Shown: positions 13,449-45,735 of the stretch, in pieces
Layout of the letters: each line of letters opens with the position of its first letter
How positions within the stretch are numbered: position 1 is the stretch's first letter
Assembly: GCA_964649415.1 (NCBI GenBank)
Contig: CAZYSK010000024.1
Coordinates: 4,711 to 68,710 of the forward strand
From: an uncultured Anaerolineales bacterium
Lineage (GTDB): Bacteria > Chloroflexota > Anaerolineae > B4-G1
Length of the DNA: 64,000 nt
Direction of reading: 5' to 3'
Notes under the pieces: generated by a model
The model's database searches: none
Told to the model about the DNA's origin: nothing
The model's input: only the letters and a program-made list of their open reading frames with translations
Position numbers and translations under genes: made by a program

Positions 13449-13586
13449 TTCGATCTAGCCTCGTGGTCAATGGTGGAGTTGCCTGCGAGGGTGTCGACCT
13501 GGGTTGACGAGCGGACGTCGTCAGGGAGTGGTCCTGGCCCTCGAGGGTTGATTATAGGCATCCTGGCACGTAGGTCAAGGTGGGCG

Positions 13587-13620: not shown

Positions 13621-13698
13621 GTAAGAGTATGACCTCCCGCGTTTGACGCGGATTTCCTCGGGAAAACAGAGGAGAATGCAGGAACTTGTTCTCTTGCG

Positions 13699-13712
13699 AA
13701 CCTTTAGGGTCT
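13699..13712. repeat. Half copy of family F (AACCTTTAGGGTCT)
   Basis: Identical to the right arm at 13607-13620, 79 nt downstream of the full copy. Confidence 0.6.
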
Positions 13713-13730
13713 TGGGGGACCGCACGGCTG

Positions 13731-23011: not shown

Positions 23012-23397
23012 AATCCAATATTCCACTGCGCATACACTAGCTCCAACGAGCATTGCCGCATTGAGTAGCGTCCTCGTCTCATCAAGCGCGCTTTTTGGTA
23101 ACAGCTTTGGCCTCAGCGGCCTAAGCGTGGGGAACGTCTGGACGGCTCAATACAGCTACCCTGCGGATGGGATTGCGCGGCTGTTTAGCATGATCCGCTT
23201 AACCACAGCCGAGCCGCCGAGAGCCTTCTCTCAGCGGTTCGGTTGTTTGCATGTAGGGAGGTGATATAGCCACATAAGTACAGTCAAACAGGTAATGGTT
23301 AGGTAACTCAAGCAGGTTTCAGGGATTCCGATTAGGGTTGGAACGTTTGCGTATTTCAGGCTCTGAAGGGCCGACACAAATACCTGGAGGTGTTAAC
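23012..23397 (+). promoter_or_regulatory. Long (~385 nt) untranslated leader; candidate riboswitch/attenuator of unknown class
   Basis: No credible ORF. It contains several GC hairpins and a terminator-like stem at 23209-23250. Confidence 0.4.
23209..23250 (+). terminator. Terminator-like stem-loop inside the leader (attenuator candidate)
   Basis: CCGAGCCGCCGAGAG (23209-23223), loop CCTT, CTCTCAGCGGTTCGG (23228-23242). That is 15 positions with 1 wobble and 1 mismatch, followed by TTGTTTGC. Confidence 0.4.
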
Positions 23398-25176
23398 GTG
23401 GAGAAGGAACTTCTAGCGACCGTTATGGCGGTGACTTCGAACGTCGAGTATACGACCAGTGACCGGATTGAGGCCTTGACCAAGGGGCACGGGATGTTGA
23501 ACCTCTCGGCCCTGTGTGCGGCGAACGCGATGACACACGAGATTCTGCAGGGACGCGACATCGCCCTCTCAGATGCGAACCTTGAAGCGCTGCCTCTCGA
23601 CATGGTGGTTGAGGCAGGTGTGAATGCGGCTATGGAGGCGGGTGCAGCGCCTGCGAACGCGGCCCTGATTACTGCCTCTCTGCTCCTGATTGCGGGCACG
23701 GAATCGCGGGCCGGTGTACCCGCTGGCAACCGCAAGCTTGGGGCAATGGCTCGCCTGAAGGCAGGCGCGGGCCGCTCCGGCGTGGCAGCCATTCCCACAT
23801 CCAAGCTGACGAACAAGGTTTCGGGTTTTGCTGCCGTGCAGGCACTGTATGACGCGATGCAGAAAGGTGAGTTGGTCCGGGTAGACGGCGCTGCCGTGCC
23901 CGCCTTCGTGGCCGGTGGTGCTCCCATGGGCCACAGCGTGTTGGGCGAGGACATGGTCTACGTGGATCTGTGCATGAACGGCGGCAAGATCGCGGTGGAC
24001 GCGATGATGAAGGCCTACCACGGTGTGGGCATCAGCGCCAGCCCGATCCAGTGCGCCATGCTCGCCGCTGCCGCCGTGCTGGAGATCATCAACCCGGACG
24101 GGATGATCGGAGCCGAGTACGGCACTTTCTTTGTCGAGGGCACCGGCTATCTGGCGGGCAAGGGCGCGGCCGAGGCTGCCGGGCTCCCAGAGAAGCTCCA
24201 CCTGCGCGGCACGGGCACAGAGTACGACACAGCCGCGTTCATAGGCGGCATGGGCATGATCCTCAAGGACGTGGGTGCCCCCTCGGTGATCGGCATGATG
24301 ACGCTGAACGAGATACTGGCCGCTTTCGCGGAGGGCCCGATGATCGGGGCTGGCTTCGGCGGTGGCCCGGTCAATCCTCCGCTGGCTCACCTGTTGGCTG
24401 ACTGCGTCATCTCCATGAATTTGCTGATCGACCACAAGGGTGATGTGGAGGCATGCGCCGACGTCATCCACGAGGTCAAACTCACGCAGTGGATTGACGG
24501 TGAGATCGCCGCCTGCTGCACCAACACGATCGCTCGCAAGGCCGAGCAGGTCCGCCGCGGCCCGGTCACGGAGACCATCATCAAGGCCACCGACGGCATC
24601 CGGGCCAATGCTATCTACCGCCGGGCGAAGTTCGCTTACGACGAACTGAGCGCCGGCAAGGAACTGGCCGACGTGTGCGTGGCGCTGGATCAGGCGCGCA
24701 AGGAGAAGGTCGAGGCGAGCGCCGGCGTGATCCTGAGCGGTTTCTTCGGCAAGGAAATCGCCATCAAGTTCACCAAGCTGGAGGGTGGAGCGCGTCGCGA
24801 TCACCCCTTCGCCCAGTCCTACTGGGGCTTCGACGCTGACATTGACACCGTGGTGACCGTAGACGGTGAGGAGTTCGTGATGGAGGGTCTGAGCCACAAG
24901 GTGATCCCCGACGCCGTGCTCAACAAGAAAGCCGAGCTGTCATTGCCGATCACCGTCGCGGCAGCAGTGGCGCAGGAACTCATGTACGTCGGCTGCTGCA
25001 CGATTGACGCGGTCATTCCGGCCGTCGTGGCCGCGGCTATGGGCAAGTACACCTGGAAGGACGCGGGGAAGAAGGCGGAGAAGGCCGCCCGAATCACGTG
25101 CTCCATCCCAGGGGCGAAGGACACAGCCCGCGAGGTGGCCCGGCTCGCCGTGCGGATCTTGAAGGATCTGGAGTAG
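23398..25176 (+). CDS. Uncharacterised Ala/Gly-rich 592-aa protein; first gene of the C1/Lar operon
   Basis: GTG 23398 lies 7 nt after GGAGG. It appears soluble (no long hydrophobic stretch). Two vicinal Cys-Cys dipeptides: IAACCTNT (TGCTGC 24514-24519) and YVGCCTID (TGCTGC 24994-24999). No Walker A, Rossmann or LarA-like motif recognised. Confidence 0.7.
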
Positions 25177-25230
25177 TCTCCGGAGTTTGTCTTGCTCCGG
25201 GCAGTCCTAAGACCTGTCGCATCTGAGTAA

Positions 25231-25262
25231 GGGTAGGGGTGCGGGGGATCGTACCCCTACCC
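25231..25262 (+). other. 10-bp GC hairpin between the first two operon genes
   Basis: GGGTAGGGGT (25231-25240) pairs with ACCCCTACCC (25253-25262). No T-tract follows. Confidence 0.4.
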
Positions 25263-25315
25263 ATCTGGTGGTCGATCTCACACGGCCCTGAGCACTGGCG
25301 AGACGCTAACCTCTG

Positions 25316-25822
25316 ATGTTGCTTTTGGTGAATGTGGATGACATATCGGGTGAGGTGATCCCCCACGTCATTGATGGATTGATGGCGCGGGGGGCTATGA
25401 GTGTGCACGTGGTTCAGGCATTCACCAAGAAGGGGCGGCTGGACTATCTATTCTTCATAGACGCCCCGGAGGAGCGGGCCGAGGGATTGGGAGGCTACCT
25501 GGCCTGCGAGTTGGGCACGTTGGGTGTACGGGTCTTCGATCCACGCCACATCCGCTTCGAGTACCGCATGCAGCGGGTGCGACTGAGCGCTCAGGTGGAC
25601 GTGCGTGTGGAAGCGCTCGTGAGCGTGAAGGAGGTCCTCGGCCACGATGGGAGCGTTGTCCACGTCAAGGCCGAGTGGGGTGATCTGGAGGCGGCACTGA
25701 CCCAGCTTGAGCGGGCCGGTTGCCCTGTCTCCCTCACTGCACTCAAACGACTCGTCGAGCAGGCCGTGCTGGGGCGGAGGGACTGTTCCCTCTCGAACGT
25801 TCAGGCAGAGTATCTACCTTGA
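25316..25822 (+). CDS. Stand-alone LarC C-terminal-domain-like protein (DUF111 C-terminal half)
   Basis: 168 aa. LLLVNVDDISGEVIPHVIDGLMARGAMSVHVVQAFTKKGRLDYLFFID...TLGVRV aligns by eye with the in-window LarC segment [48 protein letters not shown]...TIGVRM. The N-terminal LarC domain is absent. Confidence 0.65.
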   Translation: MLLLVNVDDISGEVIPHVIDGLMARGAMSVHVVQAFTKKGRLDYLFFIDAPEERAEGLGGYLACELGTLGVRVFDPRHIRFEYRMQRVRLSAQVDVRVEALVSVKEVLGHDGSVVHVKAEWGDLEAALTQLERAGCPVSLTALKRLVEQAVLGRRDCSLSNVQAEYLP

Positions 25823-25839
25823 GTTGCAAGGAGATGATA

Positions 25840-26715
25840 ATGAAGCATATACTGATCTACTTCGACATGAACAAGCGGCCGAGTCCGTTCGACATCTTGT
25901 TCGCATACGACGTGGGCTTCGACATCGTGCTGCCGTTCAGCGGGGTGACGATGGAGGAGATCACGCCACTGGTGCAGGATGCCATGTTCCCCCGTGGACC
26001 GAAGGGGGCGACGTACACGACGATCTTCTTCGGGGGCAGCGACCTTGACGCCGTGGAGAAAATGGCCAAGAAGGCCAAGAAGACGATGTTCCCGCCGTTT
26101 CAGCTTTCCATCGCTGTTGACCCGAAGGGCGCTCACACGACGTCCTCAGCGATCGTAGCGAAGGTTTTAGAGGCCTTGGCCAGCAAGGGTGAGACGTTGG
26201 AGGGCAAGAAGGCCGCCGTTCTAGGGGGCTGTGGCCGTGTGGGCCGGGTGGCGAGCCGAATCCTGGCCAGGGAAGGCGTCGAGGTCACGATGTTGGACAT
26301 CGTCGAAGACGTGACCTCGCTTGCTCTTCAGATTTCTGAGATGGTGGAAGGGAAAGTGACGGGCGTGGTGGCCAAGTCGCCGCAGGAGATAGTGGCGGCA
26401 GCGAAAGAGTGCGAGATCGTGGTCTCTGCCGGCCCGGCGGGTGTCGAGCTGGTACCTGAGGAGTTCGTTCCCCAGTTGGAGAAGTGCATGGTCGCGGCCG
26501 ACGTGAACGCGGTCCCGCCGGCGGGCATCGCGGGCATCAAGGCGAAGTATGACAAGCGGGAGAAGAACGGGATTTTGACCATTGGTGCGCTCGCTGTCGG
26601 GAACCTCAGGAACAAGATCGAGGCCAAGATGCTGAAGACAGCGATGGAATCGGAGGGGGCGTTCCTGGACTACACCAACGCCTTCGAGTTCGCCAAGGAG
26701 TTGGCGGACATTTGA
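25840..26715 (+). CDS. NAD(P)-dependent methylene-tetrahydromethanopterin dehydrogenase (MtdA/MtdB family)
   Basis: 291 aa from ATG 25840 (AAGGAG upstream). FDMNKRPSPFDILFAYDVG, TTIFFGGSD, PFQLSIAVDPKGAHTTSSA, GKKAAVLGGCGRVG and IGALAVGNLRNKIE parallel Methylobacterium MtdA/MtdB. Confidence 0.85.
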   Translation: MKHILIYFDMNKRPSPFDILFAYDVGFDIVLPFSGVTMEEITPLVQDAMFPRGPKGATYTTIFFGGSDLDAVEKMAKKAKKTMFPPFQLSIAVDPKGAHTTSSAIVAKVLEALASKGETLEGKKAAVLGGCGRVGRVASRILAREGVEVTMLDIVEDVTSLALQISEMVEGKVTGVVAKSPQEIVAAAKECEIVVSAGPAGVELVPEEFVPQLEKCMVAADVNAVPPAGIAGIKAKYDKREKNGILTIGALAVGNLRNKIEAKMLKTAMESEGAFLDYTNAFEFAKELADI

Positions 26716-26790
26716 GTCGACCGAGTCTTTGAGACCAGCCATGGAGAACGGCTGGGAAGGAAACCGGGTTCTTGGCGACGCCATCTTGAT

Positions 26791-26824
26791 GGCGCGCCAT
26801 CGGAATGGCGCCTTTGTAGGAATG
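26791..26824. repeat. Hairpin+GTAG element related to families B2/C (GGCGCGCCAT-CGGA-ATGGCGCC-TTT-GTAGGAATG)
   Basis: Intergenic between mtd and the ATP-grasp gene. It is the reverse-complement counterpart of the 36-nt units at 45628-45735, with a few mismatches. A second small palindrome, GCCATC-TT-GATGGC, lies at 26780-26793. Confidence 0.6.
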
Positions 26825-26890
26825 CTGGGGCGCCGTCGCGGGAGCCTACGTCGTACGAGAGGCCCTGGTTTCTGAGGGTGGTGGAGCGGA

Positions 26891-28129
26891 GTGCGCACTG
26901 GCATTCTCATCGTCGGACTTAGCACACGCGCCATCGCCGAGTCGGCGGTGAGGGGGGGGCATCAGGTCGTCACACTGGACTACTTTGGCGATCGGGATCA
27001 GCGGGAGCTGGTGGAGAACCACGCGCTCCTGCGAGATCCTACACTGATTGGTGAGACCTGCCCCTCCTTCAGCGCCGCAGCACTGGAGCAAGCCAGCCGT
27101 TCTCTTGACTTCGAGTCAGTTGTGTACATCTCCAATCTGGAGAACCATCCCGAGGTGGTTGAAGAACTGGCACAGGGGCGCGTTCTGCTCGGGAACGCGC
27201 CCACTGTGCTCTATCAGGTGCGCGACTGGCGCACGCTGCGGGCCTTCTGCCATGAGGTTGGGGTTGCCTGTCCGCACACGTTGCTAGCTGGAGAGGGGGC
27301 GGCGGCTGACGGGGGCAACCGCTGGCTACGCAAGCCGGTCCGCAGCGGCGGAGGGCACGGCGTCCAGCCGTGGGATGGCAGGCCGTTAGGCCAGTCTCAC
27401 TTCCTGCAGGCGTATGTTGAAGGTCGGCCTGCGTCTGCGGCCTTCGTGGCCGATGGGAAGCGGTGCGTGGTGATCGGCCTGACGGAGCAACTCATTGGGC
27501 GGGGTGAGCTGGGGGCACAGGGCTTCGGCTGGTGTGGCAACATCCTTCCGTTGGCAGGGGGGGACAACGAATCGGGAAAGGAACGAAGGGGGGAAGGGGC
27601 GCAGCGGACTGCGCCTTGGAAGGACGAAGGGCTCGCCGTATTGGAGGAAGTGGAGCGGATGGCTGCTGCGCTCACTCGCCGCTTCGGTTTGCGGGGTGTG
27701 AACGGGCTGGATTTGATCGTGGCGCGCGACCGAGACGGTGGTCCACGCGCGATCCTGGTGGAGGTCAACCCCCGCTACACGGCCTCGATGGAATTGGTCG
27801 AGCGAGCATACGGGCTTAACATCTTCTCGCTGCACGTGGAAGCGATGGACGGTCGATTGCCTGACTTTCGGCTGGCGGAGCACTTGTACGCTCGGGGTCT
27901 GTGGTTTGCCAAAGGGATCGTCTACGCCAGGCGACCGGTGACTATGCCGGAGACAGGCGGGTGGGTGAAACGGGGCAGGCGGGACATTCCCTTCCCCGGC
28001 GAGCGGATCGAGGCTGGCCATCCCGTGTGTACGGTTCTAGCAGAAGGTGAGGGGCGAGATACGTGCTGGCAGCATTTGTTGGCGGGCGTCGCAGACGTCC
28101 GGCAGGAGATCGGAGACCTGACAGAGTGA
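26891..28129 (+). CDS. ATP-grasp domain protein of the C1-cofactor cluster (Orf17/OrfY- or MfnD-like)
   Basis: 412 aa from GTG 26891. ATP-grasp core: WLRKPVRSGGGHGV, FLQAYVEG, GVNGLDLIV, LVEVNPRYTASMEL. It carries the family B insert at 27559-27619. The exact substrate cannot be told from sequence. Confidence 0.7.
   Translation: MRTGILIVGLSTRAIAESAVRGGHQVVTLDYFGDRDQRELVENHALLRDPTLIGETCPSFSAAALEQASRSLDFESVVYISNLENHPEVVEELAQGRVLLGNAPTVLYQVRDWRTLRAFCHEVGVACPHTLLAGEGAAADGGNRWLRKPVRSGGGHGVQPWDGRPLGQSHFLQAYVEGRPASAAFVADGKRCVVIGLTEQLIGRGELGAQGFGWCGNILPLAGGDNESGKERRGEGAQRTAPWKDEGLAVLEEVERMAAALTRRFGLRGVNGLDLIVARDRDGGPRAILVEVNPRYTASMELVERAYGLNIFSLHVEAMDGRLPDFRLAEHLYARGLWFAKGIVYARRPVTMPETGGWVKRGRRDIPFPGERIEAGHPVCTVLAEGEGRDTCWQHLLAGVADVRQEIGDLTE
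27559..27619 (+). repeat. Composite repeat B (module B1 27559-27592 + hairpin module B2 27596-27619), in-frame in the ATP-grasp CDS
   Basis: GGGGGACAACGAATCGGGAAAGGAACGAAGGGGG is identical to 42664-42697. GGGGCGCAGCGGACTGCGCCTTGG is identical to the units at 44644-44742. It is translated as GDNESGKERRGEGAQRTAPW. Confidence 0.85.
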
Positions 28130-28143
28130 AGGAGACGAGGCGG

Positions 28144-28488
28144 ATGAGTACATCCGTGAGCAAGTGTTTCACGTTGATTACCGGGCGCACGCCTGAACAG
28201 GGGAAAGGGTTGCACGTGGGCAAGGATTCGGACGTGTACCGCGAGGCAACCGCTGCGGTGATGATGGGCGAAGGGGACATGGCCCACCTTGGCGTCAAGG
28301 AGGGGCAGATTGTCCGAGTCCGGACGGCGGCAGGACAGGTGGAAGTGCCGGTGCGGGCGGAGTCGCTTCCTGAGGGGCTGTTGTTTATGCCGATGGGGCC
28401 GATGGCGAATGTGCTGATTGGGACGGGCACGGAGGGGACGGGCATGCCCCACTTCAAGGGATTGGAGGCGGAGGTGGAGGCAGCATGA
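28144..28488 (+). CDS. fwdD: Formylmethanofuran dehydrogenase subunit D (molybdopterin-dinucleotide-binding-domain protein)
   Basis: 114 aa. FTLITGRT.EQG, GEGDMAHLGVKEGQIVRVRTAAGQVEVPV and GLLFMPMGP are typical of FwdD/FmdD. The stop overlaps the fwdB ATG (ATGA). Confidence 0.8.
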   Translation: MSTSVSKCFTLITGRTPEQGKGLHVGKDSDVYREATAAVMMGEGDMAHLGVKEGQIVRVRTAAGQVEVPVRAESLPEGLLFMPMGPMANVLIGTGTEGTGMPHFKGLEAEVEAA

Positions 28489-29783
28489 CGCGGACGCAGG
28501 AGTCCAACGTGTTCGAGAACGTGGTGTGTTCTTTCTGTGGCTGTCTGTGCGACGACCTGGCGGTAGAGGTGGATGGGGGGCGTATCACGCGGGTGCGCAG
28601 GGCATGCGCCAACGGGCGTGGGCTCTTCACGCACTACGATCCATCGCCCCGGCGACCTCGCGTGAATGGCCGGGAGGTGGATTGGGACGAAGCGGTTGCG
28701 GAGGCGGCACGCATCCTAAGCGCATCTGACAGCCCGTTGATCTATGGCCTCAGCTCCACGGCCACGGAAGCTCAGCGCAAGGCGGTGGAACTGGCGGACC
28801 GGCTGGGGGCGATGATAGACACCACGTCGTCGGTGTGCCACGGCCCCACAGGGCTGGCGATGCAGGCTGTGGGCGAGCCGACGTGTACACTGGGGGAGGT
28901 GCGGAACCGCGCTGATCTGCTGGTTTTCTGGGGCTGCAACCCAGCGGTCTCCCACATCCGCCACTTCTCGCGATATTCGGTGACGCCCAAGGGTATGCTC
29001 ACTCCCAATGGGCGCCGGGATCGGACCTTGGTCGTCGTGGACGTGCGGCCCACCGGCAGCACGAAGATGGCCGACCTCTTCCTGCAGGTGAAGCCGGGTT
29101 CCGACTTCGAGGTGCTGACGGCGCTGCGAGCGCTGGTAGGTGGGAAGGAACTCGACGCGGAGGCGGTGGGCGGCGTCCCGCTGTCGCAACTGCGAGACCT
29201 CGCGGAGCGGATGAAGACGTGCCGTTTCGGGGTGGCGTTTATGGGCATGGGGCTGACGCAGACCGGAGGGCGGGATCTCAACGTGAGCGAGCTTTTCACG
29301 TTAGTGGCCGAGTTGAACGCGCACACGCGTTTCACCGTCATCCCGATGCGAGGACACGGGAACGTGGCCGGAGCGGATCAGGTGGTGACCTGGCAGAGTG
29401 GCTATCCGTTCGCTGTCAGCTACTCACGTGGCTATCCCCGCTATGGCCCCGGCGAGTTCTCGGCGGTGGACGTGTTGGCACGAGGGGAGGCGGACGCGGC
29501 CCTGATTGTGGCCTCAGACCCGGTGGCCCATTTCCCGAAGGCGGCCGCCCAGCAATTGGAGCGCATCCCGGTCATCGCTCTCGACCCGATGCCGAGCCTG
29601 ACGACGGAGGTCGCGCAGGTGGTCTTTCCTACCGCCTGCTATGGCGTGGATGCGGCCGGCACGGCCTATCGCATGGATGGCGTGCCCATCCGGCTCCGGC
29701 CGGTGCTCCCTTCGGTGCGTCCGACCGACGAGAAGGTCTTGGGTGATATCAGTGCCTTAGTGCAGCCTGGGATGGTGATGTGA
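28485..29783 (+). CDS. fwdB: Formylmethanofuran dehydrogenase subunit B
   Basis: 432 aa. N-terminal Fe-S motif VVCSFCGCLCDD...ACANG. TTSSVCHGPTGLAMQ carries Cys118-His119 (TGC 28836-28838). RNRADLLVFWGCNP, IPMRGHGNVAG and GTAYRMDGVPIRL align closely with archaeal FwdB as I recall it. Confidence 0.9.
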   Translation: MTRTQESNVFENVVCSFCGCLCDDLAVEVDGGRITRVRRACANGRGLFTHYDPSPRRPRVNGREVDWDEAVAEAARILSASDSPLIYGLSSTATEAQRKAVELADRLGAMIDTTSSVCHGPTGLAMQAVGEPTCTLGEVRNRADLLVFWGCNPAVSHIRHFSRYSVTPKGMLTPNGRRDRTLVVVDVRPTGSTKMADLFLQVKPGSDFEVLTALRALVGGKELDAEAVGGVPLSQLRDLAERMKTCRFGVAFMGMGLTQTGGRDLNVSELFTLVAELNAHTRFTVIPMRGHGNVAGADQVVTWQSGYPFAVSYSRGYPRYGPGEFSAVDVLARGEADAALIVASDPVAHFPKAAAQQLERIPVIALDPMPSLTTEVAQVVFPTACYGVDAAGTAYRMDGVPIRLRPVLPSVRPTDEKVLGDISALVQPGMVM

Positions 29784-31471
29784 TGCTAGGAATCCTGAAC
29801 GGTCGAGTATACGACCCGATAAATGGGGTGAACGGCGAGGTCAAGGACCTGTGGATTGAGGACGGGCGGGTGGTTGCCCCGAGTGACGTGGATCGTGGCG
29901 GCGCGCAGACCATAGATGCGACGGACCTGGTGGTGATGCCCGGCGGTGTGGACGTCCACAGCCACTTTGCTGGGGCCAAGGTGAACTCGGGGCGCAAATT
30001 CCGTCCAGAGGATCACCGTGGGCACGTGCGGGCGCGGGGGAGTACGCCGGATGGGAGTGATACACGATGGCGTGGGGGGCGGATGGGCATGACCCGGTCC
30101 GGCGTGGGCTACACGACCCCAACGACGCATCTGACCGGATACCTCTACGCGGAGATGGGCTACACCACGGTGATGGAGGCTGCCTCTGCTCCCCTGGTGG
30201 CCCGCCATACCCACGAGGAGTTCGACGATGTCCCCATCTTGGACAAAGGCGCGTACATCACGATGGGCAACAATCACTTCATCATGCGCTGCATCCGTGA
30301 TGGGGAGCGGGAGAAGGCCCGGGACTACGTGGCCTGGTTGCTGGACGCGACCAAGGGTTACGCGATCAAGGTCGTCAACCCGGGTGGGGTAGAGAACTGG
30401 AAATGGGGCCAGAACGTGGCGCGCCTGGATGACGAAGTCATCGGTTTCGGTGTCACCCCCAGGCAGATTCTCACCACGCTGTCCTGGATCAATGACGACC
30501 TCGGCCTGCCTCACGTGCCGCACCTCCACAGCCTGAACCTGGGGCAGGCGGGGAACGTGCCCTCGACGATCGAGGTGATTGAGGCGCTCGACGGGCGACG
30601 GGCGCATATCTGTCACCTCCAGTTCTTCAGCTACGGCGGCGAGCCCGGCAAGATGCCGCGCTCCGGCGCGGTGGAGATCGCCCAGGCGGTGAACGCGCAC
30701 CCCCTCCTCACCGTGGATGTGGGGCAGGTGATCTTCGGCGAGGCAACGACGATGACGTCCGATGGCCCCCTCCAGTACCGGTTGCATCAGTTGACGGGCA
30801 ACAAGTGGTTGAACGACGATGTGGAGGGAGAGACGGGCGGCGGGCTGGTGCCCGTGCTCTACAAGCGGTCTAATGCGTTCAACGCGGTGCAATGGCTGAC
30901 CGGCATGGAGCTCTTCCTGCTCATCGAGGATCCGTGGCGGGTCTTCCTCACCACGGACCACCCGAATGCCGGCCCGTTCTTCTACTATCCGCGCGTGATC
31001 AAACTGTTGATGGACCGTGACTACCGGGCAGAGGCGTTGGCGGGCATATCGGCCCGGGTGCGAAGGGGGGCGCTGCTTCCCGAACTGGATCGGGAGTACT
31101 CGCTGTACGAAATCGCGATTATCACCCGAGCGGGCACGGCTCGCGTGCTGGGTCTCAAGAACAAGGGCCATCTGGGGGTGGGGGCCGACGCTGACGTGAC
31201 CATCTATGCACCGCTGGAGGATAAAGAGGAGATGTTCGCCCATCCTCGATACGTGCTCAAGGATGGTGAGGTGGTGGTGAAGGACGGCCGGCTCGTGAGC
31301 GAGCGACCGGGGCGCACGTTCTACGTCAGTCCACCGCACGATCCGGGGATCGAGGCGGACATCCGCGCCCACTTCGAGACGTGCTATAGCATGTCGTTCG
31401 ACAACTACCCGGTCCAGCCAGAGTATCTGCCCCACGGCGACGTTGTGGCCTGTGCAGGGGGCGGACATTGA
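29780..31471 (+). CDS. fwdA: Formylmethanofuran dehydrogenase subunit A (amidohydrolase)
   Basis: 563 aa. VVMPGGVDVHSHF (the HxH metal site), HVPHLHSLN, HICHLQF, FLTTDHPN. The start (GTG 29780 or ATG 29783) overlaps the fwdB stop. Confidence 0.9.
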   Translation: MMLGILNGRVYDPINGVNGEVKDLWIEDGRVVAPSDVDRGGAQTIDATDLVVMPGGVDVHSHFAGAKVNSGRKFRPEDHRGHVRARGSTPDGSDTRWRGGRMGMTRSGVGYTTPTTHLTGYLYAEMGYTTVMEAASAPLVARHTHEEFDDVPILDKGAYITMGNNHFIMRCIRDGEREKARDYVAWLLDATKGYAIKVVNPGGVENWKWGQNVARLDDEVIGFGVTPRQILTTLSWINDDLGLPHVPHLHSLNLGQAGNVPSTIEVIEALDGRRAHICHLQFFSYGGEPGKMPRSGAVEIAQAVNAHPLLTVDVGQVIFGEATTMTSDGPLQYRLHQLTGNKWLNDDVEGETGGGLVPVLYKRSNAFNAVQWLTGMELFLLIEDPWRVFLTTDHPNAGPFFYYPRVIKLLMDRDYRAEALAGISARVRRGALLPELDREYSLYEIAIITRAGTARVLGLKNKGHLGVGADADVTIYAPLEDKEEMFAHPRYVLKDGEVVVKDGRLVSERPGRTFYVSPPHDPGIEADIRAHFETCYSMSFDNYPVQPEYLPHGDVVACAGGGH

Positions 31472-31491
31472 CCGTGCGTCCAGGACACTTG

Positions 31492-32061
31492 ATGAGCATC
31501 GCCTGGGGAGTCACGGGCGGTGGTCATTTTCTGCAGGAGTGCGTCGACTTGGTTCGGGAGCTCGGTGAGGCGGAATTTGGGGGTGCGGCCAAGATGGCCG
31601 CGGTCCGAGTGGACGTCTTCCTCTCCCTCGCGGGTGAGGAGGTACTGCGCATGTATGGCCTGGCGGACGCGGTGCACCGGTCAGCCAGGGCGGTAGTGCG
31701 GGACAACATGAGCAGTGCGCCCGTCGTGGGTCGCTTTGCCCAACCCGACCGGTATCGCGCCCTGGTCATTGCCCCGGCCACGTCGAATACAGTGGCCAAG
31801 TTTGTCTTGGGCATCTCCGATTCCCTGATCACCAACCTGTTTGCCCAGGCCGGGAAAAACCGGGTGCCGACTCTGGTGCTACCCACGGATCTCGCGCCCG
31901 AGATGGACACCGTCACGCCCAGTGGAAGGACGATCAAGGTCTACCCGCGCGAGGTCGACCTGGAGAACACGGCCAGGCTGCGCGAGTTCCCGAACGTAGC
32001 GGTGGTGGAAGATCTGGAGGGACTTCGATGTCGGTTGCAGGGCCTAGATACCTGTTCGTAA
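31492..32061 (+). CDS. AfpA/DmrB-like flavoprotein (candidate dihydromethanopterin reductase)
   Basis: 189 aa from ATG 31492. MSIAWGVTGGGHFL and LVIAPATSNTVAKFVLGISDSLITNL are typical of the flavoprotein (PF02441-type) fold. Function is inferred from cluster context. TTG 31468 is an alternative start. Confidence 0.65.
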   Translation: MSIAWGVTGGGHFLQECVDLVRELGEAEFGGAAKMAAVRVDVFLSLAGEEVLRMYGLADAVHRSARAVVRDNMSSAPVVGRFAQPDRYRALVIAPATSNTVAKFVLGISDSLITNLFAQAGKNRVPTLVLPTDLAPEMDTVTPSGRTIKVYPREVDLENTARLREFPNVAVVEDLEGLRCRLQGLDTCS

Positions 32062-33380: not shown

Positions 33381-33399
33381 TATTTGGAGGTAGTAGAGG

Positions 33400-34284
33400 A
33401 TGCACATCAACGGCGTTGAGATTGAGGACACCTTCGCCGAGGCGTTCAAGATGCGGGCTGCACGGTTGCTCATCACTGCGATTAACCCGCAGTGGGCGAT
33501 GACGGCGGCGCAAGTGAGCACGGGTTTCGCCACATCGGTCATCGCATGTGGCTGCGAGGCCGGCATCGAAGGGGTCGTCCCGTCGGACGTGACACCCGAT
33601 GGCCGCCCCGGCGTGAGTATTCTCATCTTCACAATGGGGCCAAAGGGGATGAAGGATCAGTTGATGCGCCGCGTGGGCCAGTGTATCATGACTTGTCCCA
33701 CGACGGCCTGCTTCAACGGCCTGGAGGGCGAGGAGTGGCTCAAGATCGGCGGGACGCTGCGCTACTTCGGCGATGGGTTCCAGGCGAGCAAGCTCGTGGG
33801 GGGGCGGAGGTTCTGGCGGATACCGGTGATGCAGGGCGAGTTCCTGGTGGAAGAGCAGTTCGGCATGAAGAAAGCCGTTGGCGGCGGGAACTTCCTTATC
33901 CTGGGCGAAAGCGTCGAGGCCACGCTTGGGGCGGCCGAACGGGCGGTGGAGGCGATGCACGCAGTGGAGGGGGTGGTGATGCCGTTCCCCGGTGGCATCG
34001 TACGCAGTGGCAGCAAGACGTCGTCACAGTACAAGTTCCTGCATGCCTCGACCAACACCGCGTACTGTCCTAGCCTCCGTCGCCAGACCGACAGCGCGCT
34101 GCCGGAGGGCGTCAATTCCGTGCTGGAGATCGTGATCGATGGGCTGGATGAGGATGCGGTGAGAGAGGCGACGCGGGTGGGCGTCGATGCGGCGTGCCGG
34201 CCCGGCATCGTGCGCATCTCGGCGGGCAACTACGGTGGCACTTTGGGGCAATACCAGATTCATCTGCAGGAGTTGTGGAAGTGA
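33400..34284 (+). CDS. ftr: Formylmethanofuran:tetrahydromethanopterin N-formyltransferase
   Basis: 294 aa. VEIEDTFAEAF.MRAARLLITA, GFATSVIACGCEAGIE, RIPVMQGEFLVEE, GGGNFLILG, MPFPGGIVRSGSK, ISAGNYGG.LG match Ftr/FhcD. Confidence 0.9.
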   Translation: MHINGVEIEDTFAEAFKMRAARLLITAINPQWAMTAAQVSTGFATSVIACGCEAGIEGVVPSDVTPDGRPGVSILIFTMGPKGMKDQLMRRVGQCIMTCPTTACFNGLEGEEWLKIGGTLRYFGDGFQASKLVGGRRFWRIPVMQGEFLVEEQFGMKKAVGGGNFLILGESVEATLGAAERAVEAMHAVEGVVMPFPGGIVRSGSKTSSQYKFLHASTNTAYCPSLRRQTDSALPEGVNSVLEIVIDGLDEDAVREATRVGVDAACRPGIVRISAGNYGGTLGQYQIHLQELWK

Positions 34285-35171
34285 GGAGCACTACACTGCG
34301 TTTGAGGGACTCGGTCACTCTCCCCGTCGAGGCGGAGAGTATATCGCCCGACCGGTTTGCCGGGCTCAGTCAGGAGGAGGTGGCGGCGCTACCACTCCTG
34401 TATGGGCGGCGACCGGTGACTGTCGGCGATCTGTTCGTGGTGGAAGGGGCGGACGTTGCGGACATTCAGGTGGGACGCACTTCAGAAAGTGCGTCCCACC
34501 TGGTTGGTCGTGCGTCCGATGGGGAGGAGATCCTCCTCGAAGGTGATCTCAGTCACGTGAAGCGGATCGGGCAGGGGATGGCCAGTGGACGGATCACCAT
34601 CCGAGGCAATGTCGGCATGCATCTTGGAGCCGAGATGAGCGGGGGGGAGATCGTCGTCCACGGGAACGCCGCGGCGTGGATGGGCGCGCACATGTCCGGT
34701 GGGGTCATCCGCGTGCGGGGGGACGTCGGCCCGATGGCCGGCGCTGCCTATCCGGGAGAGAAGCGCGGTATGCGCGGCGGTTCTATTCTCGTGGAAGGAA
34801 GCGCCGGGCCGCGGGTGGGGGAGCGCATGCGGCGCGGGCTGATCGCCGTCCAGGGCGACGTGGGAGAGTTCTCCGGGGTGCGGATGATCGCCGGATCGCT
34901 CTTCGTGTTTGGCACGTTGGGGCCGAGGGCGGGCGCTGGCATGAAGCGCGGCACGATCGTCGCGCTGGGATCTATTGAGGGCGACCTGCTGCCTGTGTTC
35001 CACTATGCCTGCTCCTATCAGCCGGCCTTCCTGCGCACTTATCTGCGCCACCTGCGCGGGTGGGGTTTGCCCGTCACGTCAGATCACGTCGAGGGAGTCT
35101 TTCGCCGCTACGTTGGTGACATCACGACTCTGGGAAAAGGGGAGATTCTGGTCTATGATCGGCGTCAATGA
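34281..35171 (+). CDS. fwdC: Formylmethanofuran dehydrogenase subunit C
   Basis: 296 aa from GTG 34281 (GTGA overlap with ftr). VTVGDLFVVEG, then the repeated G-x-x-x-G beta-helix motifs (GRITIRGNVGMHLGAEMSGGEIVVHGNAAAWMGAHMSGGVIRVRGDVG...). It carries the family A insert at 34449-34506. Confidence 0.85.
   Translation: MRSTTLRLRDSVTLPVEAESISPDRFAGLSQEEVAALPLLYGRRPVTVGDLFVVEGADVADIQVGRTSESASHLVGRASDGEEILLEGDLSHVKRIGQGMASGRITIRGNVGMHLGAEMSGGEIVVHGNAAAWMGAHMSGGVIRVRGDVGPMAGAAYPGEKRGMRGGSILVEGSAGPRVGERMRRGLIAVQGDVGEFSGVRMIAGSLFVFGTLGPRAGAGMKRGTIVALGSIEGDLLPVFHYACSYQPAFLRTYLRHLRGWGLPVTSDHVEGVFRRYVGDITTLGKGEILVYDRRQ
34449..34506 (+). repeat. Repeat family A copy 1 (58 nt, 16-bp hairpin), in-frame in fwdC
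   Basis: 58/58 identical to 39417-39474. The core is CAGGTGGGACGCACTT-CAGA-AAGTGCGTCCCACCTG (34467-34502). It is translated as ADVADIQVGRTSESASHLV. Confidence 0.9.
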
Positions 35172-37927: not shown

Positions 37928-38003
37928 GGCAGTCGGCAAAGCAGCAAATCGGCAGAGGGGAGATTGTTTGACACGGTCGCGAGGTGCGGGAGGAACATCG
38001 GGT

Positions 38004-39095: not shown

Positions 39096-39128
39096 GGGCG
39101 CGGTTTCCGCGCCCGCCGGAGTGCCAGA

Positions 39129-40070
39129 GTGCCGGAGTTGATGGCTTTGGAGTCTGAAGACAGGGAGTTGGATACGAAACGGGCTGCGCTGAGGGAAACG
39201 TTCGCCGATATGGAGCGCGTGCTGGTCGCCTACTCTGGCGGCGTGGACAGCGCGTTTCTGCTGTGGGCTGCCTTGGACGCGCTGGGCCCGGAGCGTGTGC
39301 TGGCCGTGACCGCTTCCTCGCCCATATTCGCCCGCCGGGAGTTGAGGGCAGCCGAGGACTTGGCGCATCGCTTGGGGGCTCCCCATCGTTTCGTGCGCAC
39401 CATGCAACTGGAGGATGCGGACGTTGCGGACATTCAGGTGGGACGCACTTCAGAAAGTGCGTCCCACCTGGTTGATGGTGCGCCCGTGAAATTCGCGACG
39501 AATCCGCCGGAGCGATGCTATCTTTGCAAGCGGGAGATATTCGCCCGGCTGGTGGAGGTGGCCCGCGAGGAGGAAATACCCTGGGTCGTCGAGGGCTCCA
39601 ACCTGGACGACCGTGACGAGTACCGGCCAGGCACCCGGGCAGTGCGTGAGTTGGACGTGCGAAGCCCGTTGGAGGAGGTCGGACTGACCAAGGCGGACAT
39701 CCGGGCTCTCTCCCGGCGCGTGGGCTTGCCGACGTGGAATCAGCCAGCGCAGACCTGTTTGGCCACGCGCTTCCCGCACGGCACGCCGATCACGCGTGAG
39801 CGGCTGGAGCGGGTGGAGGCCGCTGAGGTGGTGTTGAGGGAGATGGGATTCGGCGAGCTGCGGGTGCGGGATCACGTCGACCCTGCGGCGGGTCCTATCG
39901 CCCGCATCGAGGTGCTCCGTGAGGATGTGGCACGGCTGGCGCGACCGGAAGCCGCGGAACGGGTGGTGGCCGCGCTGCGGGGGCTGGGCTACGACTACGT
40001 CACGTTGGACCTGGGGGGCTACCGGCGCGGTGGCCTCAGTGGGCAGGTTGGTGAAGTAGTAGATTGGTAG
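39129..40070 (+). CDS. larE: LarE, ATP-dependent sulfur transferase of nickel-pincer (NPN) cofactor biosynthesis (PP-loop ATP pyrophosphatase)
   Basis: 313 aa. PP-loop VAYSGGVDSAFL, DDRDEYRPG, CLATRFPHG, RVRDH, YVTLDLGGYRRG. There are three Cys: CYLC 39516-39527 and TGT 39756-39758. It carries the family A insert at 39417-39474. Confidence 0.85.
   Translation: MPELMALESEDRELDTKRAALRETFADMERVLVAYSGGVDSAFLLWAALDALGPERVLAVTASSPIFARRELRAAEDLAHRLGAPHRFVRTMQLEDADVADIQVGRTSESASHLVDGAPVKFATNPPERCYLCKREIFARLVEVAREEEIPWVVEGSNLDDRDEYRPGTRAVRELDVRSPLEEVGLTKADIRALSRRVGLPTWNQPAQTCLATRFPHGTPITRERLERVEAAEVVLREMGFGELRVRDHVDPAAGPIARIEVLREDVARLARPEAAERVVAALRGLGYDYVTLDLGGYRRGGLSGQVGEVVDW
39417..39474 (+). repeat. 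Repeat family A copy 2, in-frame in larE
   Basis: Identical to 34449-34506 and in the same reading frame (ADVADIQVGRTSESASHLV). The hairpin is at 39435-39470. Confidence 0.9.
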
Positions 40071-40131
40071 ATTGGTACATTGGTACATTGGTAGATTGGT
40101 AGATTGGTACATTGGTACATTGGTCAATCGG
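40060..40131. repeat. Octanucleotide tandem array [(TAGATTGG)2(TACATTGG)2]x2 + TCAATCGG
   Basis: Nine 8-nt units from 40060 to 40131. The second unit contains the larE stop codon TAG (40068-40070). The array fills the larE-larB spacer. Confidence 0.9.
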
Positions 40132-40143
40132 AGTGTGATATAG

Positions 40144-40887: not shown

Positions 40888-40915
40888 AAGGATTACTCTC
40901 AACGAGGGGTGACAG

Positions 40916-42118: not shown

Positions 42119-43303
42119 GTGACAGATATGCAGGAGAGGCGCAAGCCCAAGGACCGGGACTTCCTCCGTACCCGCGAGGGCATGTTCTTCTGTGTGACCG
42201 GTTATCTGCACCCGCCGGATCGGTATACCGCCTATCTCAAGTATTCGCCTGCTGCGTCGGGGAAGTGGCACAATGCGGAGACGGCCTACCAGCGGGAACT
42301 GCCTTACTACCACGTCCGCAGTGTGGAGGATACAATCCAGCATCTGGAGGCGCATTACCCCTGGTACGTCGCGGATTGCCCCGTCCGGAATATCCGCTTC
42401 TCAATGGTGCCCCGGGAATACGTCGCCCGCTACTACGATCCACAGGAGCGGTTGAGGGAGATACTGGCGCATCCTGGCGACTCGCTGGAGGAGGAGGTGT
42501 GTGGTCTGGCGACCGAGATCGCCGAGACCGCCGGCGTGCCCGTCGGCGATCTGGGTATCACGGGATCGATCCTGATCGGATTGCACAACCCGACCTTCTC
42601 GGATATTGATCTGGTGGTGTATGGGCGGCAGAGCGCCCGTCGGGTGCGCCGGGCCTTGGGCGCGGGGGACAACGAATCGGGAAAGGAACGAAGGGGGAGA
42701 GCAGCGCAGTCCGCTGCGCCGCGAATCCGCGAGTTGGGCGCGGCGTTCATCGAGCGCTGGAGCCGGGGAATCGCGGAGCGCTTTCCCTTGACGGTGAGTG
42801 AGGCGCAGTATCTCGCCCGCCGGCGTTGGAACTACGGCTGGTACGGGGAGCGGTATTTCTCGATCCACCCGATCCGCACGGATGACGAGATCACCGAGCA
42901 CTACGGAGATCACATCTACCGCGGCCAGGGAGCCGCACGAATCCGGGCCACCGTTGTCGGCACGAGCGACGCGCTGTTCATGCCCGCCGGGTACCTGCTG
43001 GCGGACGTGGAGGTCTTGGAAGGCCTTGCAGAGGCGGCGGATGTCCGGGAACTGGTCTCCTACGAGGGTCTCTATCGCGACGTGGCCGACGTGGGGCAGA
43101 GAATCGAGGCCAAGGGGAACGTGGAGCGAGTGGACGCGGACATTGCGGACATTGATAGCGCGTCCGTCCGTGCGTCCGCGGCAGACCCTAAAGGTTTCGG
43201 AAAACCTTTAGGGTCTGACATCAGGCTGGTGGTCGGCACGAGCGCCCTCAAGGGTGAGGGGTACATACGGCCGCTTCCCGCCGGGGATAGCGCGGACAAC
43301 TGA
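42119..43303 (+). CDS. Pol-beta-superfamily nucleotidyltransferase-like protein (paralog 2)
   Basis: 394 aa. LGITGSILIGLHNPTFSDIDLVVYG. Collinear with paralog 1 except for two extra segments, which coincide with the repeat elements at 42664-42720 and 43136-43216. Its stop overlaps the next ATG (TGATG). Confidence 0.6.
   Translation: MTDMQERRKPKDRDFLRTREGMFFCVTGYLHPPDRYTAYLKYSPAASGKWHNAETAYQRELPYYHVRSVEDTIQHLEAHYPWYVADCPVRNIRFSMVPREYVARYYDPQERLREILAHPGDSLEEEVCGLATEIAETAGVPVGDLGITGSILIGLHNPTFSDIDLVVYGRQSARRVRRALGAGDNESGKERRGRAAQSAAPRIRELGAAFIERWSRGIAERFPLTVSEAQYLARRRWNYGWYGERYFSIHPIRTDDEITEHYGDHIYRGQGAARIRATVVGTSDALFMPAGYLLADVEVLEGLAEAADVRELVSYEGLYRDVADVGQRIEAKGNVERVDADIADIDSASVRASAADPKGFGKPLGSDIRLVVGTSALKGEGYIRPLPAGDSADN
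42664..42720 (+). repeat. Composite repeat B copy 2 (B1 42664-42697 + B2 hairpin with flipped loop 42704-42719), in-frame
   Basis: B1 is 34/34 identical to 27559-27592. The hairpin is GCGCAG-TCCG-CTGCGC, against GCGCAG-CGGA-CTGCGC in copy 1. It is translated as GDNESGKERRGRAAQSAAP. Confidence 0.85.
43136..43216 (+). repeat. Double hairpin element in-frame in paralog 2: GCGGAC-repeat hairpin (43136-43179) + family F palindrome (43183-43216)
   Basis: GCGGACATTGCGGACATT...GCGTCCGTCCGTGCGTCCGC, then AGACCCTAAAGGTTT-CGGA-AAACCTTTAGGGTCT. It is translated as DADIADIDSASVRASAADPKGFGKPLGSD. Confidence 0.8.
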
Positions 43304-44670
43304 TGGCGGAAGCGGTCTTCCTGATATACGTCGCCACGGTCATGGTGATGGGCGTCAAGGCCAAAGCTAAGACGCTGGAGACGTTCATCCTGGGCGACGT
43401 GCTGGACACGAAGACGATGGTGGCCACAATCGTGTCCACGTTCTACGGCGCGTCTGCCATCCTTGGCGGGGTGAGCCTGACGTACCAGTTGGGGCTGGAC
43501 GTAATCTGGTTCATGGTGCCCTTCTATCTGGGCAACGTGGCCATCATCCTCTTGCTCAAGCGGATCGCTTCCTCAGAAAGGTGCACGCTGCCAGGCTTCC
43601 TGGGCGACTTCTACGGCAATGGGTTCGCTGTGGCAAGTTCGATGCTGTTGGTGACTCTGTGCCTCGTTCCGGAGGAGATCATCGCCGGGGGAAAGATCCT
43701 ATCCCTGTTCACGTCAATGCCCGTGGAGGCGGCGATGGGCGCTATGACCTTCGTGTTGGTGGTGCCTGTTGCCATCGGCGGGATGAAAGCAGACGTGATA
43801 ACGGATATCGCTCAGTTCGCCCTGATGTTGATCATGCTTGGCGTCATGGTGCTGTTCCTCGGCCATACGGGCCGCCTGGGCCTGCAGCCGGACCTGGACT
43901 CGGGTGTCCCGCCCGGGCATCTGACTCTCTGCTCGTCTCTATCGCTGCAGGAAATCGCCGTGTTCTTCGTCTCCTTCTTCTTCCTGCCGATCACCTCAGC
44001 ACCTCTGTACCTGCGCTTCTTTGCCTCGGAGTCAGAAGCGTGCTCCAGGAAATCGGTGCTGTCGTCTGTCGCGATATGGATGGTCGTAGACGCGATCATC
44101 GTGCTCTGCGGCTTCGCGGCCCTGCGGATGTTTCCGAACCTGGACGATCCAGATATGTCGTTCGTCCTGCTTGGGATGGCGATGCCCCCGGTGGGTCGGG
44201 GCGTGTTCACTATAGGGCTGCTGGCCGCGATCATGAGCACGGTGAACTCCTTTCTCCAGTCCGGGGCGTCAAGCCTGGCGCACGACGCATTCAGGCATTT
44301 CATGCCTGGAACCAGTGACCGGCGATTGCTCGCGCTGTCCAGGGTGTTCGTGATTGTGCTGGGCTTGCTGAGCCTGGCGCTGGCTCTGTGGTTCCAGATG
44401 ATCGTGCCGGCGCTGTTGTTCACGTTGAGTATGTGGACGGCCGGGGTGCTGGTTCCCACTCTGGCGGCTCTCAGCGGCGTGCGGTTGAGGAAGCGGTCGG
44501 CGTGGGCCAGTCTGGCGGCCGGGACACTATCCTGTCTGGCCTGGCAGATGGCGCAGCCGTTTCAGGTAGATGCGTTGTTCGTCGGCCTGGGATGCTCTGT
44601 GCTCGCCGCGCTTATCTCGGAAGTCCTGCCCGGTCGCGCTCAGGGGGCGCAGCGGACTGCGCCTTGGTAG
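43303..44670 (+). CDS. Sodium:solute symporter (SSS) family transporter
   Basis: 455 aa with about 12 TM segments. GGMKADVITDIAQF-type motif. The last 8 codons and the stop (GAQRTAPW*) are encoded by repeat unit 1 at 44644. Confidence 0.75.
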   Translation: MAEAVFLIYVATVMVMGVKAKAKTLETFILGDVLDTKTMVATIVSTFYGASAILGGVSLTYQLGLDVIWFMVPFYLGNVAIILLLKRIASSERCTLPGFLGDFYGNGFAVASSMLLVTLCLVPEEIIAGGKILSLFTSMPVEAAMGAMTFVLVVPVAIGGMKADVITDIAQFALMLIMLGVMVLFLGHTGRLGLQPDLDSGVPPGHLTLCSSLSLQEIAVFFVSFFFLPITSAPLYLRFFASESEACSRKSVLSSVAIWMVVDAIIVLCGFAALRMFPNLDDPDMSFVLLGMAMPPVGRGVFTIGLLAAIMSTVNSFLQSGASSLAHDAFRHFMPGTSDRRLLALSRVFVIVLGLLSLALALWFQMIVPALLFTLSMWTAGVLVPTLAALSGVRLRKRSAWASLAAGTLSCLAWQMAQPFQVDALFVGLGCSVLAALISEVLPGRAQGAQRTAPW

Positions 44671-44742
44671 AGGAGCGGGGCGCAGCGGACTGCGCCTTGG
44701 TAGAGGAGCGGGGCGCAGCGGACTGCGCCTTGGTAGAGGAGC
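44644..44742 (+). repeat. Three perfect tandem 33-nt units of hairpin module B2 (GGGGCGCAGCGGACTGCGCCTTGGTAGAGGAGC)
   Basis: Units at 44644-44676, 44677-44709 and 44710-44742, then a degenerate start of a fourth unit. Each has the GGCGCAG-CGGA-CTGCGCC hairpin followed by TTGGTAG. Confidence 0.9.
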
Positions 44743-44798
44743 GGGGTGAAGCGGTGAATCCGCGAGGAGAAAGGGTCGGGCCACGACTGGGCCTCAAT

Positions 44799-45627: not shown

Positions 45628-45735
45628 CATCCCTACAAAGGCGCCGTTCTGACGGCGCACTAACATCCCTACAAAGGCGCCGTTCTGACGGCGCGCTAAC
45701 ATCCCTACAAAGGCGCCGTTCTGACGGCGCGCTAA
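45628..45735. repeat. Three tandem 36-nt units, family C (CATCCCTACAAAGGCGCCGTTCTGACGGCGCRCTAA)
   Basis: Units at 45628-45663, 45664-45699 and 45700-45735, between convergent genes. Hairpin GCGCCGT-TCTG-ACGGCGC with CTAC 3 nt upstream. The last unit supplies the stop codon (45732-45734) of the minus-strand lipoprotein gene. Confidence 0.9.

Follow-up and report, generated by a model that had tools for sequence, protein, structure and literature searches.

A composite hairpin repeat within the reading frames of two unrelated enzymes in an uncultured Anaerolineales bacterium

We have found a small composite repeat, here called composite B, that forms part of the reading frame of two unrelated enzyme genes in an uncultured Anaerolineales bacterium; it lies in a stretch of 64,000 nucleotides (nt) of contig CAZYSK010000024.1 (assembly GCA_964649415.1, positions 4,711 to 68,710 of the forward strand), which we refer to as the window. 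The repeat joins a 34-nt non-palindromic module (B1) to a short GC-rich hairpin (B2), and it lengthens an ATP-grasp protein and a nucleotidyltransferase without closing either open reading frame (ORF). With a probability of roughly 0.6, composite B is a small non-coding hairpin repeat of the type of the repetitive extragenic palindromic (REP) sequences or the Rickettsia palindromic elements (RPE), which was copied into coding DNA and kept as a neutral protein 'decoration'. In-frame palindromic repeats are already known, and the best documentation of them comes from Rickettsia and a few REP-rich genomes; the window adds an instance in an uncultured Anaerolineae-type Chloroflexota, not a new phenomenon.

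Composite B and its insertion in the ATP-grasp gene

The features that make up the first copy of the composite, together with the second copy of B1, are the following:

26891..28129, plus strand: ATP-grasp gene hosting composite B; 412 aa, Pfam PF02655 (ATP-grasp_3), E = 2.3e-16; in a tetrahydromethanopterin (H4MPT)/formylmethanofuran cluster
27557..27622, plus strand: segment gained by insertion or replacement (residues 223-244, GGDNESGKERRGEGAQRTAPWK); orthologues have a 7-residue loop, relative to which it adds a net 19 codons
27559..27592, plus strand: B1 copy 1, purine-rich, non-palindromic module, duplicate of 42664-42697
27596..27622, plus strand: B2 unit in the ATP-grasp gene, with the hairpin at 27598-27615 and the tail TTG-GAAG; 24-nt exact match to the array units described below
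42664..42697, plus strand: B1 copy 2, read in the frame of copy 1 (GDNESGKERRG)

The original prediction, made from the sequence of the window, had claimed that the 34-nt module at 27559-27592 recurs exactly at 42664-42697, and this proved correct with 0 mismatches. When up to 3 mismatches are allowed, B1 (GGGGGACAACGAATCGGGAAAGGAACGAAGGGGG) has only these two exact copies in the window, both on the plus strand, and none of 100 shuffled sequences gave a match. Neither a further copy at up to 11 mismatches nor an inverted partner of B1 was found in the window and ~13 kb of flanking contig. On its own, the module does not form a secondary structure (fold energy -0.9 kcal/mol, z = -1.0), and all six of its frames are free of stop codons. 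The alignment of the two loci (family D7) extends over 65 nt at 83% identity, with 11 differences: 4 within the 8 nt 5' of B1, 7 within the 23 nt on its 3' side and none in B1 itself (34 nt). Because all the differences between the two loci fall outside it, B1 is a discrete block with sharp edges. We also considered B1 as a copy of native loop sequence and rejected this, as it has no significant similarity to the native loops of relatives, and its alignments to the loops of the two relatives called L001 and L135 below were no better than shuffles. We read B1 as a module that would serve as linker or passenger in a mosaic element, rather than as a functional unit.

B2 (GGGGCGCAGCGGACTGCGCCTTGG, 24 nt) occurs exactly at 27596-27619 and, as had also been predicted, three times in a tandem array, at 44644, 44677 and 44710. 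It contains an 18-nt stem-loop with a 7-bp stem and a 4-nt loop (GGCGCAG-CGGA-CTGCGCC), and this hairpin is recovered in both the minimum free energy and the centroid folds. The tail reads TTGGAAG at the ATP-grasp copy versus TTGGTAG in the array, so that the in-frame TAG stop is gone from the former.

The ATP-grasp ORF reads ...GNILPLAGGDNESGKERRGEGAQRTAPWKDEGLAVLEEVERMAAAL..., the corresponding protein segment being GNILPL-AGGDNESGKERRGEGAQRTAPWKDEG-LAVLEEVERMAAAL, and the peptide GDNESGKERRGEGAQRTAPW is part of the 412-aa protein. The two modules do therefore encode an in-frame segment inside the ATP-grasp domain, as had been stated, and the comparison with orthologues shows this segment to be peculiar to the window protein. 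There are 1639 homologues, mostly of 380-390 aa, in metagenome-assembled genomes (MAGs) of Anaerolineae and Thermoflexia. We aligned 120 proteins, the window protein and 119 relatives taken as the best of these 1639; the relatives are mostly unnamed metagenome proteins, and the few that are labelled come from Anaerolineae, Thermoflexia and other Chloroflexota MAGs and from one Smithellaceae. The loop has ~7 residues (e.g., ALPP-AEG) in 119 of 119 orthologues versus 26 in the window protein, and the insert is absent from all of them. The order Mtd, ATP-grasp, FwdD/B/A is maintained in relatives.

The insertion site was compared at the codon level with the locus of the closest relative (L135, 74% aa identity) and with a second locus, L134. 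To the left of the insert the window and L135 have CCG TTG GCA in common, and to the right the window has GAC GAA GGG (DEG) versus AER. Between them, 22 codons (27557-27622) replace 3 codons of L135, a net gain of 57 nt. In an AlphaFold2 model built with 67 sequences (mean predicted local distance difference test, pLDDT, 90.3; predicted template modelling score 0.90), the protein has a standard ATP-grasp fold of the biotin carboxylase/PylC type, in which residues 226-240 form the sole segment with pLDDT <50. This segment lies between the strand 216-219 and the helix 243-265, and the insert is thus predicted to be a disordered surface loop at a strand/helix junction.

The same loop has received an unrelated insert in another lineage. 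The proteins P0013/P0019, from locus L134, carry 13 additional aa (GACCCCCCACTGCGTGGGGGGTT) right after Pro-Leu, and the DNA of this insert has its own 8-bp GC hairpin (CCCCCCAC-TGC-GTGGGGGG), with a single occurrence in the 17.7 kb read. In the contig concerned (JGI 3300028837, Ga0309839_1001981; Chloroflexota; positions 7182-7204) the loop insert reads GLAVTDPPLRGGF. Because an unrelated hairpin insert occupies the same loop in this lineage, the ATP-grasp loop appears, on these comparisons, to be a permissive site that has been struck repeatedly.

The second copy and the related hairpins of the window

The second composite and the hairpins related to it are found at the following positions:

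42119..43303, plus strand: nucleotidyltransferase (NTP_transf_2) gene, 394 aa, Pfam PF01909; hosts the second composite B and a 36-nt palindrome
42703..42720, minus strand: B2 core with flipped loop; TCCG loop on the plus strand, 1 mismatch to B2, without the TTGG/GTAG tail
43182-43217: 36-nt perfect palindrome, CAGACCCTAAAGGTTT-CGGA-AAACCTTTAGGGTCTG, in frame in the nucleotidyltransferase gene, encoding ADPKGFGKPLGSD
43303..44670, plus strand: sodium:solute symporter gene, Pfam SSF; its C-terminus GAQRTAPW and its TAG come from the first B2 unit
44644..44754, plus strand: B2 tandem array, 33-nt period, 3.4 copies, GGGGCGCAGCGGACTGCGCCTTGGTAGAGGAGC; Tandem Repeats Finder score 208; between the symporter gene and an AP_endonuc_2 gene
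26787..26837, plus strand: sister-family single hairpin, GCGCCAT-CGGA-ATGGCGC-C-TTT-GTAG, in the 175-nt gap between the Mtd and ATP-grasp genes; inverted match to the array at 45628
45628..45735, minus strand: sister-family (D4) array, 3 x 36 nt; minus strand GCGCCGT-CAGA-ACGGCGCC-TTT-GTAG

The nucleotidyltransferase is unrelated to the ATP-grasp protein, and B1 lies in it in the same frame. Six nt 3' of B1, the sequence GCGCAGTCCGCTGCGCC (42704-42720) corresponds to the B2 stem with its 4-nt loop flipped. The loop that carries the composite has ~6 residues (RE-GRSA) in 119 orthologues versus 21 in the window protein. The same gene also holds the 36-nt palindrome; other copies of the palindrome are intergenic at 13586-13621, half-length at 13699-13727 and degenerate at 955-989.

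The 90% protein cluster of the symporter led us to a 9.6-kb contig of a close relative (JGI 3300057034, ~90% nt identity), here called L001, that has none of the three inserts of this region. Its nucleotidyltransferase loop reads AL-REGTGAGG-RIRELG versus AL-GAGDNESGKERRGRAAQSAAP-RIRELG in the window, where the net gain is 39 nt, and the palindrome at 43182-43217, a net gain of 33 nt in frame, is without counterpart. Of the B2 array, exactly 99 nt (3 x 33) are missing in L001, where the symporter stop codon and the beginning of the AP_endonuc_2 gene overlap. The window symporter takes its final 8 codons and its TAG stop from the first array unit and ends in ...EVLPGRAQGAQRTAPW versus ...EVLYMRSPRARR in P0125, a protein at least 90% identical. 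The copies examined are thus recent gains or losses with respect to the ~90%-identical sister lineage, and the three differences (composite, palindrome and array) arose after ~10% divergence; the inserts can be dated as recent because the sister lineage is without every insert that could be compared. An 11-nt sequence considered as a third module (GAATCCGCGAG, at 42724 and 44757) was rejected, being native at both places and present in L001.

The array folds far better than its shuffles (z = -4.8) and contains B2 without B1. This, together with the 34 of 34 identity and the sharp edges of B1, bears out the modular structure that had been proposed for the element. Moreover, the window has a family of GC-rich hairpins of which B2 is a member and which are also found at gene ends and in intergenic sequence, single or in tandem. 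B2 and the D4 sister family have a common plan, GGCGC-NN-C(G/A)GA-NN-GCGCC-TT(G/T)-GTAG, that includes the stem ends, the loop and the TTK-GTAG tail. The single sister hairpin at 26787 occupies a gap that relatives do not have, since their Mtd and ATP-grasp genes abut or overlap, and the D4 array sits between convergent genes. The GTAG tag is carried by 3 of 5 B2 copies and 4 of 4 D4 copies, always 3 nt 3' of the stem.

Composite B is not the only hairpin repeat in frame in this DNA. The A repeat is 78 nt long, with two copies (34441-34518 and 39409-39486) that are 92% identical and have a perfect 16-bp stem (CAGGTGGGACGCACTT-CAGA-AAGTGCGTCCCACCTG). They lie in frame in a FwdC-like GXGXG protein (34281..35171) and in an unrelated LarE-like PP-loop protein (39129..40070), and both encode ADVADIQVGRTSESASHLV, adding 20 aa to the former when compared to its L134 orthologue and ~23 aa to the latter when compared to LarE of the PDB. 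The 64 kb thus contain five intragenic hairpin inserts from at least three families, and all five are in central one-carbon (C1) or cofactor genes: ATP-grasp, FwdC-like, LarE-like and, struck twice, nucleotidyltransferase. The A-family leader (GCGGACGTTGCGGAC) matches the L134 ATP-grasp gene at 17 of 18 positions; we judged this match coincidental, as the sequence there encodes a conserved WRTLRT and is itself a 9-nt tandem.

A C(G/A)GA tetraloop is common to four hairpin families whose stems are unrelated (26796, 27598, 34467, 39435, 43182 and, on the minus strand, 45640). In most cases it is on the plus strand, which for the intragenic copies is the sense strand, and it is on the opposite strand in the D4 array, in C3 and in the nucleotidyltransferase B2. 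This common loop suggests a shared recognition factor or a shared origin. A 32-nt perfect palindrome at 60926-60957 (CAGGTTGGGAGCCC-GCGT-GGGCTCCCAACCTG), just upstream of an ABC permease gene and present in all four assemblies of the strain that were read, has the CAG...CTG format of the A and C hairpins.

Inserts of this kind lengthen proteins, break k-mer assemblies and can mislead orthology and domain calls in MAGs. They also flag permissive loops, which is useful to protein engineering, and the B1 module and the common C(G/A)GA loop are leads to the copying mechanism.

Relation to known repeats and origin of composite B

Several properties of composite B are those of the intragenic GTAG/CGTC REPs (Di Nocera et al. 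2013, PMC3733652). These REPs are found in genes, often as dimers or groups, where they encode 20-30 aa; GTAG repeats have been reported in Chloroflexi, and REP clusters are reiterated together with flanking DNA (PMC3733652). More than 90% of the members of the GTAG superfamily have the GTAG tetranucleotide at one end. B2 is likewise a short GC-rich stem-loop (7-bp stem, 4-nt loop), consistent with the imperfect palindrome of 20-40 bp that characterizes a REP, and its units are found at gene 3' ends, in intergenic sequence and in tandem with flanking DNA, the array at the 3' end of the symporter gene showing the clustering typical of REPs. In both cases there are several families per genome, with copies in enzyme ORFs that encode ~20-30 aa and some genes struck twice. 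On the other hand, composite B differs from these REPs in that a TTK spacer separates the stem of B2 from a GTAG on its 3' side, and in that the hairpin carries the 34-nt non-palindromic B1.

The 'GTAG-type' label that the original prediction had given to the hairpin module holds in part. Three units of the array do have GTAG after a TTG spacer; the two intragenic copies lack the tag (GAAG in the ATP-grasp gene and none in the nucleotidyltransferase gene) and the polarity is reversed. In the REPs of Escherichia coli and Pseudomonas, GTAG is 5' of the stem, which is the opposite polarity to that of B2. A further family of the window, D3 (46609), has the arrangement stem-CTAC, that is, the canonical REP polarity.

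The RPEs are similar to composite B in that they lie in frame in ORFs that stay intact and in that the same element is found in unrelated proteins (PMC3733652). They add hydrophilic surface segments to proteins whose ORFs remain functional, and the short RPE-4/6 end in CGTC (PMC3733652). Composite B too is an in-frame insert in an intact ORF that is absent from orthologues. Unlike the RPEs, which are confined to Rickettsia, it belongs to a Chloroflexota; it is ~61 nt long, palindromic in its 3' third only and without a CGTC end. RPE-1, in turn, is ~100-150 bp long and palindromic over its whole length. Bacterial interspersed mosaic elements (BIMEs) are built of REP hairpins, which may point either way, and of conserved linker motifs that are not palindromic. 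The placement of B1 next to a B2 hairpin in either orientation has the mosaic flavour of these enterobacterial elements, whereas BIMEs are extragenic, with two or more alternating REPs, and composite B has one hairpin per copy and two copies, both intragenic. BIMEs are mentioned as REP clusters by Di Nocera et al. (2013, PMC3733652). Finally, bacterial miniature inverted-repeat transposable elements such as Correia/NEMIS, Nezha and Chunjie have terminal inverted repeats of 15-30 bp and target-site duplications (PMC10969869). Composite B resembles them as a small non-autonomous repeat able to lie in or overlap ORFs, and differs in having neither of these two features.

If composite B is a repeat of the REP/RPE type, copies in ORFs would persist only when they add a multiple of 3 nt, are free of stop codons and fall into a permissive surface loop. 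The ATP-grasp copy would fit all three, with its net gain of 57 nt, the change of TAG to AAG and its position in a disordered strand/helix loop. Candidates for the copying machinery would be a REP-associated tyrosine transposase (RAYT), with its gene in another part of the genome, or template switching that the hairpins promote when the DNA is replicated. The simplest explanation for the flipped 4-nt loop of the nucleotidyltransferase copy would be a secondary inversion between the two stem arms, which are perfectly complementary. In both intragenic copies B1 lies 5' of the hairpin, and it may be comparable to the non-palindromic motifs of BIMEs.

Several observations weigh against this interpretation, beginning with the absence of the GTAG tag from both intragenic copies and its non-canonical polarity. 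The known loci are two for B1 and three for B2, all within 17 kb. A B1 20-mer searched in JGI metagenome contigs, a collection that does not contain the source contig, gave only 5 chance matches, with AT-rich unrelated flanks, and no copy of composite B was found in viral contigs. No Y1/RAYT transposase (Y1_Tnp) is present among the genes of the window and its flank with Pfam matches, and composite B has no terminal inverted repeats. As for flanking direct repeats, their similarity at the ATP-grasp locus is unconvincing (p ~0.07); at the nucleotidyltransferase locus it reaches p ~0.016, and both halves are native in L001, so that the 10-nt sequence found on both sides of that copy (TTGGGCGCGG) was discarded as a target-site duplication. 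Furthermore, both events replace part of the native loop, with net gains of 57 and 39 nt for ~61 and 57 nt shared. The mobility that had been suggested for the modules is therefore not fully supported: B1 was found nowhere else in the sequence searched, which is the case that the original prediction itself had named as pointing to local gene conversion.

These observations would also be explained by local templated patch-copying, the chief alternative, which we take seriously and still consider unlikely. According to this, a break or a stalled fork would have been repaired by template switching or microhomology-mediated synthesis, not by transposition, with ~35-60 nt taken from the other locus 15 kb off or from a third nearby locus; the hairpin would promote the switch and B1 would be carried host sequence. 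The complete identity of B1, its sharp edges and the differing bases adjacent to it are in agreement with such an event, as are the existence of only two B1 copies 15.1 kb apart and of two A copies 5 kb apart, the lack of copies in the metagenome contigs, the viral contigs and the ~13 kb extra contig, and the absence of terminal inverted repeats, of a clear target-site duplication and of a transposase among the genes checked. Neither event is a clean insertion, and TTGG precedes both sites. However, no donor was found, B1 being dissimilar to the native loop of either gene in relatives, and the hairpin part has a family at further loci, in both orientations and in arrays. Moreover, several unrelated hairpin families behave alike, a pattern expected of dispersed mobile repeats, and the census, which covers ~77 kb of the source genome (the window and the ~13 kb extra contig), is too small for calling the modules unique. 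In the searches with an 18-mer of B2, genome contigs gave more than 119 single matches in unrelated genomes, a pattern too short to be specific; 12 of the 119 matches listed are from Chloroflexota, several of them with GG...CC stem extensions. In one Anaerolineae MAG (STL-CHL15, JAXLWE010000006.1, locus L059, 6143-6171) an identical 18-nt B2 core is flanked by GTAG...CTAC in intergenic sequence (GTAGGGGCGCAGCGGACTGCGCCCTAC).

A related and rather improbable idea is that B1 is a passenger patch outside any mobile element, and that hairpin-primed copying moves 30-80 nt of arbitrary neighbouring DNA between hairpin sites. If this were true, hairpin-primed copying over a few kb to tens of kb would write new in-frame loops in enzymes, and one process would account for both the A pair, with 5 kb between its copies, and the B pair, with 15 kb. 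It would represent a local, transposase-independent innovation of loops, distinct from REP/RAYT transposition.

It is improbable to a still higher degree that the segment is functional, either as a selected shared peptide loop (an interaction or regulatory tag) or as an mRNA hairpin that tunes translation or stability in the operon. The frame is the same in both proteins and the six frames of the ATP-grasp copy are free of stops, but two copies share a frame by chance in 1 of 3 cases, and the orientation of the hairpin differs between them. Both hosts are in cofactor-related clusters (H4MPT and Lar genes), and the C(G/A)GA loops are on the sense strand in most copies of four families. Against this, the segment is absent from every orthologue aligned, the nucleotidyltransferase insert is also absent from the ~90%-identical sister lineage, the insert is predicted to be disordered, and no Rfam family was found on the whole window. 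The insert peptide (34 aa) matched 0 of 1.84 billion protein representatives; a six-frame peptide query of a 5.8-billion protein index returned 47 word-sharing candidates, none of which scored, such queries being too short for significance. Finally, an assembly artefact, a repeat-induced chimera, hardly deserves consideration: the source is indeed a contig from a metagenome, short-read assembly can go wrong at repeats of at least 34 nt and the two host proteins are not listed in Logan assemblies, but identical 412-aa and 394-aa proteins are found in independent JGI (125,113 bp) and ENA/NCBI (125,042 bp) assemblies, the reading frames are open, and the flanks on both sides align to orthologues without rearrangement.

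Genomic surroundings

The region 23338-43303 contains a complete-looking H4MPT/methanofuran C1 module (Mtd, ATP-grasp, FwdD/B/A/C-like, Ftr, Mch, RimK-type ligase and CitG-like), which adjoins LarE/LarB/LarC-like genes and two paralogous NTP_transf_2 genes. Upstream of the 592/612-aa ORF without Pfam match that opens this cluster there are ~16 GGGTGG hexamers with a 12-nt super-period (22654-22749). An 8-nt tandem (GTACATTG/GTAGATTG, ~8 copies, 40040-40135) runs from the last codons of the LarE-like ORF through the gap to the LarB-like gene.

Between the AP_endonuc_2 gene and a MacB-type permease gene, the interval 45611-46750 holds just one ORF, which is PD40-like, 288 aa long and on the minus strand, and which lies between the REP-like arrays 45628-45735 (3 x 36 nt) and 46609-46752 (3 x 48 nt, stem-CTAC). 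The equivalent interval of L001 (3090-6620) contains CbiQ, two ABC ATPases and an energy-coupling factor (ECF) S-component. Another assembly of the same strain (L126, ENA ERZ27256778 k141_1178929), which extends upstream past the start of the JGI contig, has at 10-1595 an IS3-type transposase pair (HTH_Tnp_1 and rve) adjoining a restriction-modification pair. The GC content of the window is ~63% and drops to ~53% past 52 kb. An exact 41-nt direct repeat (ACTGGAAACGTCAAACGTTGAGAGTTGTCATTGGCAAACCG) is found in AT-richer intergenic sequence at 50106-50146 and 50184-50224, the two copies being 78 nt apart, and these are possibly paired operator or promoter elements.

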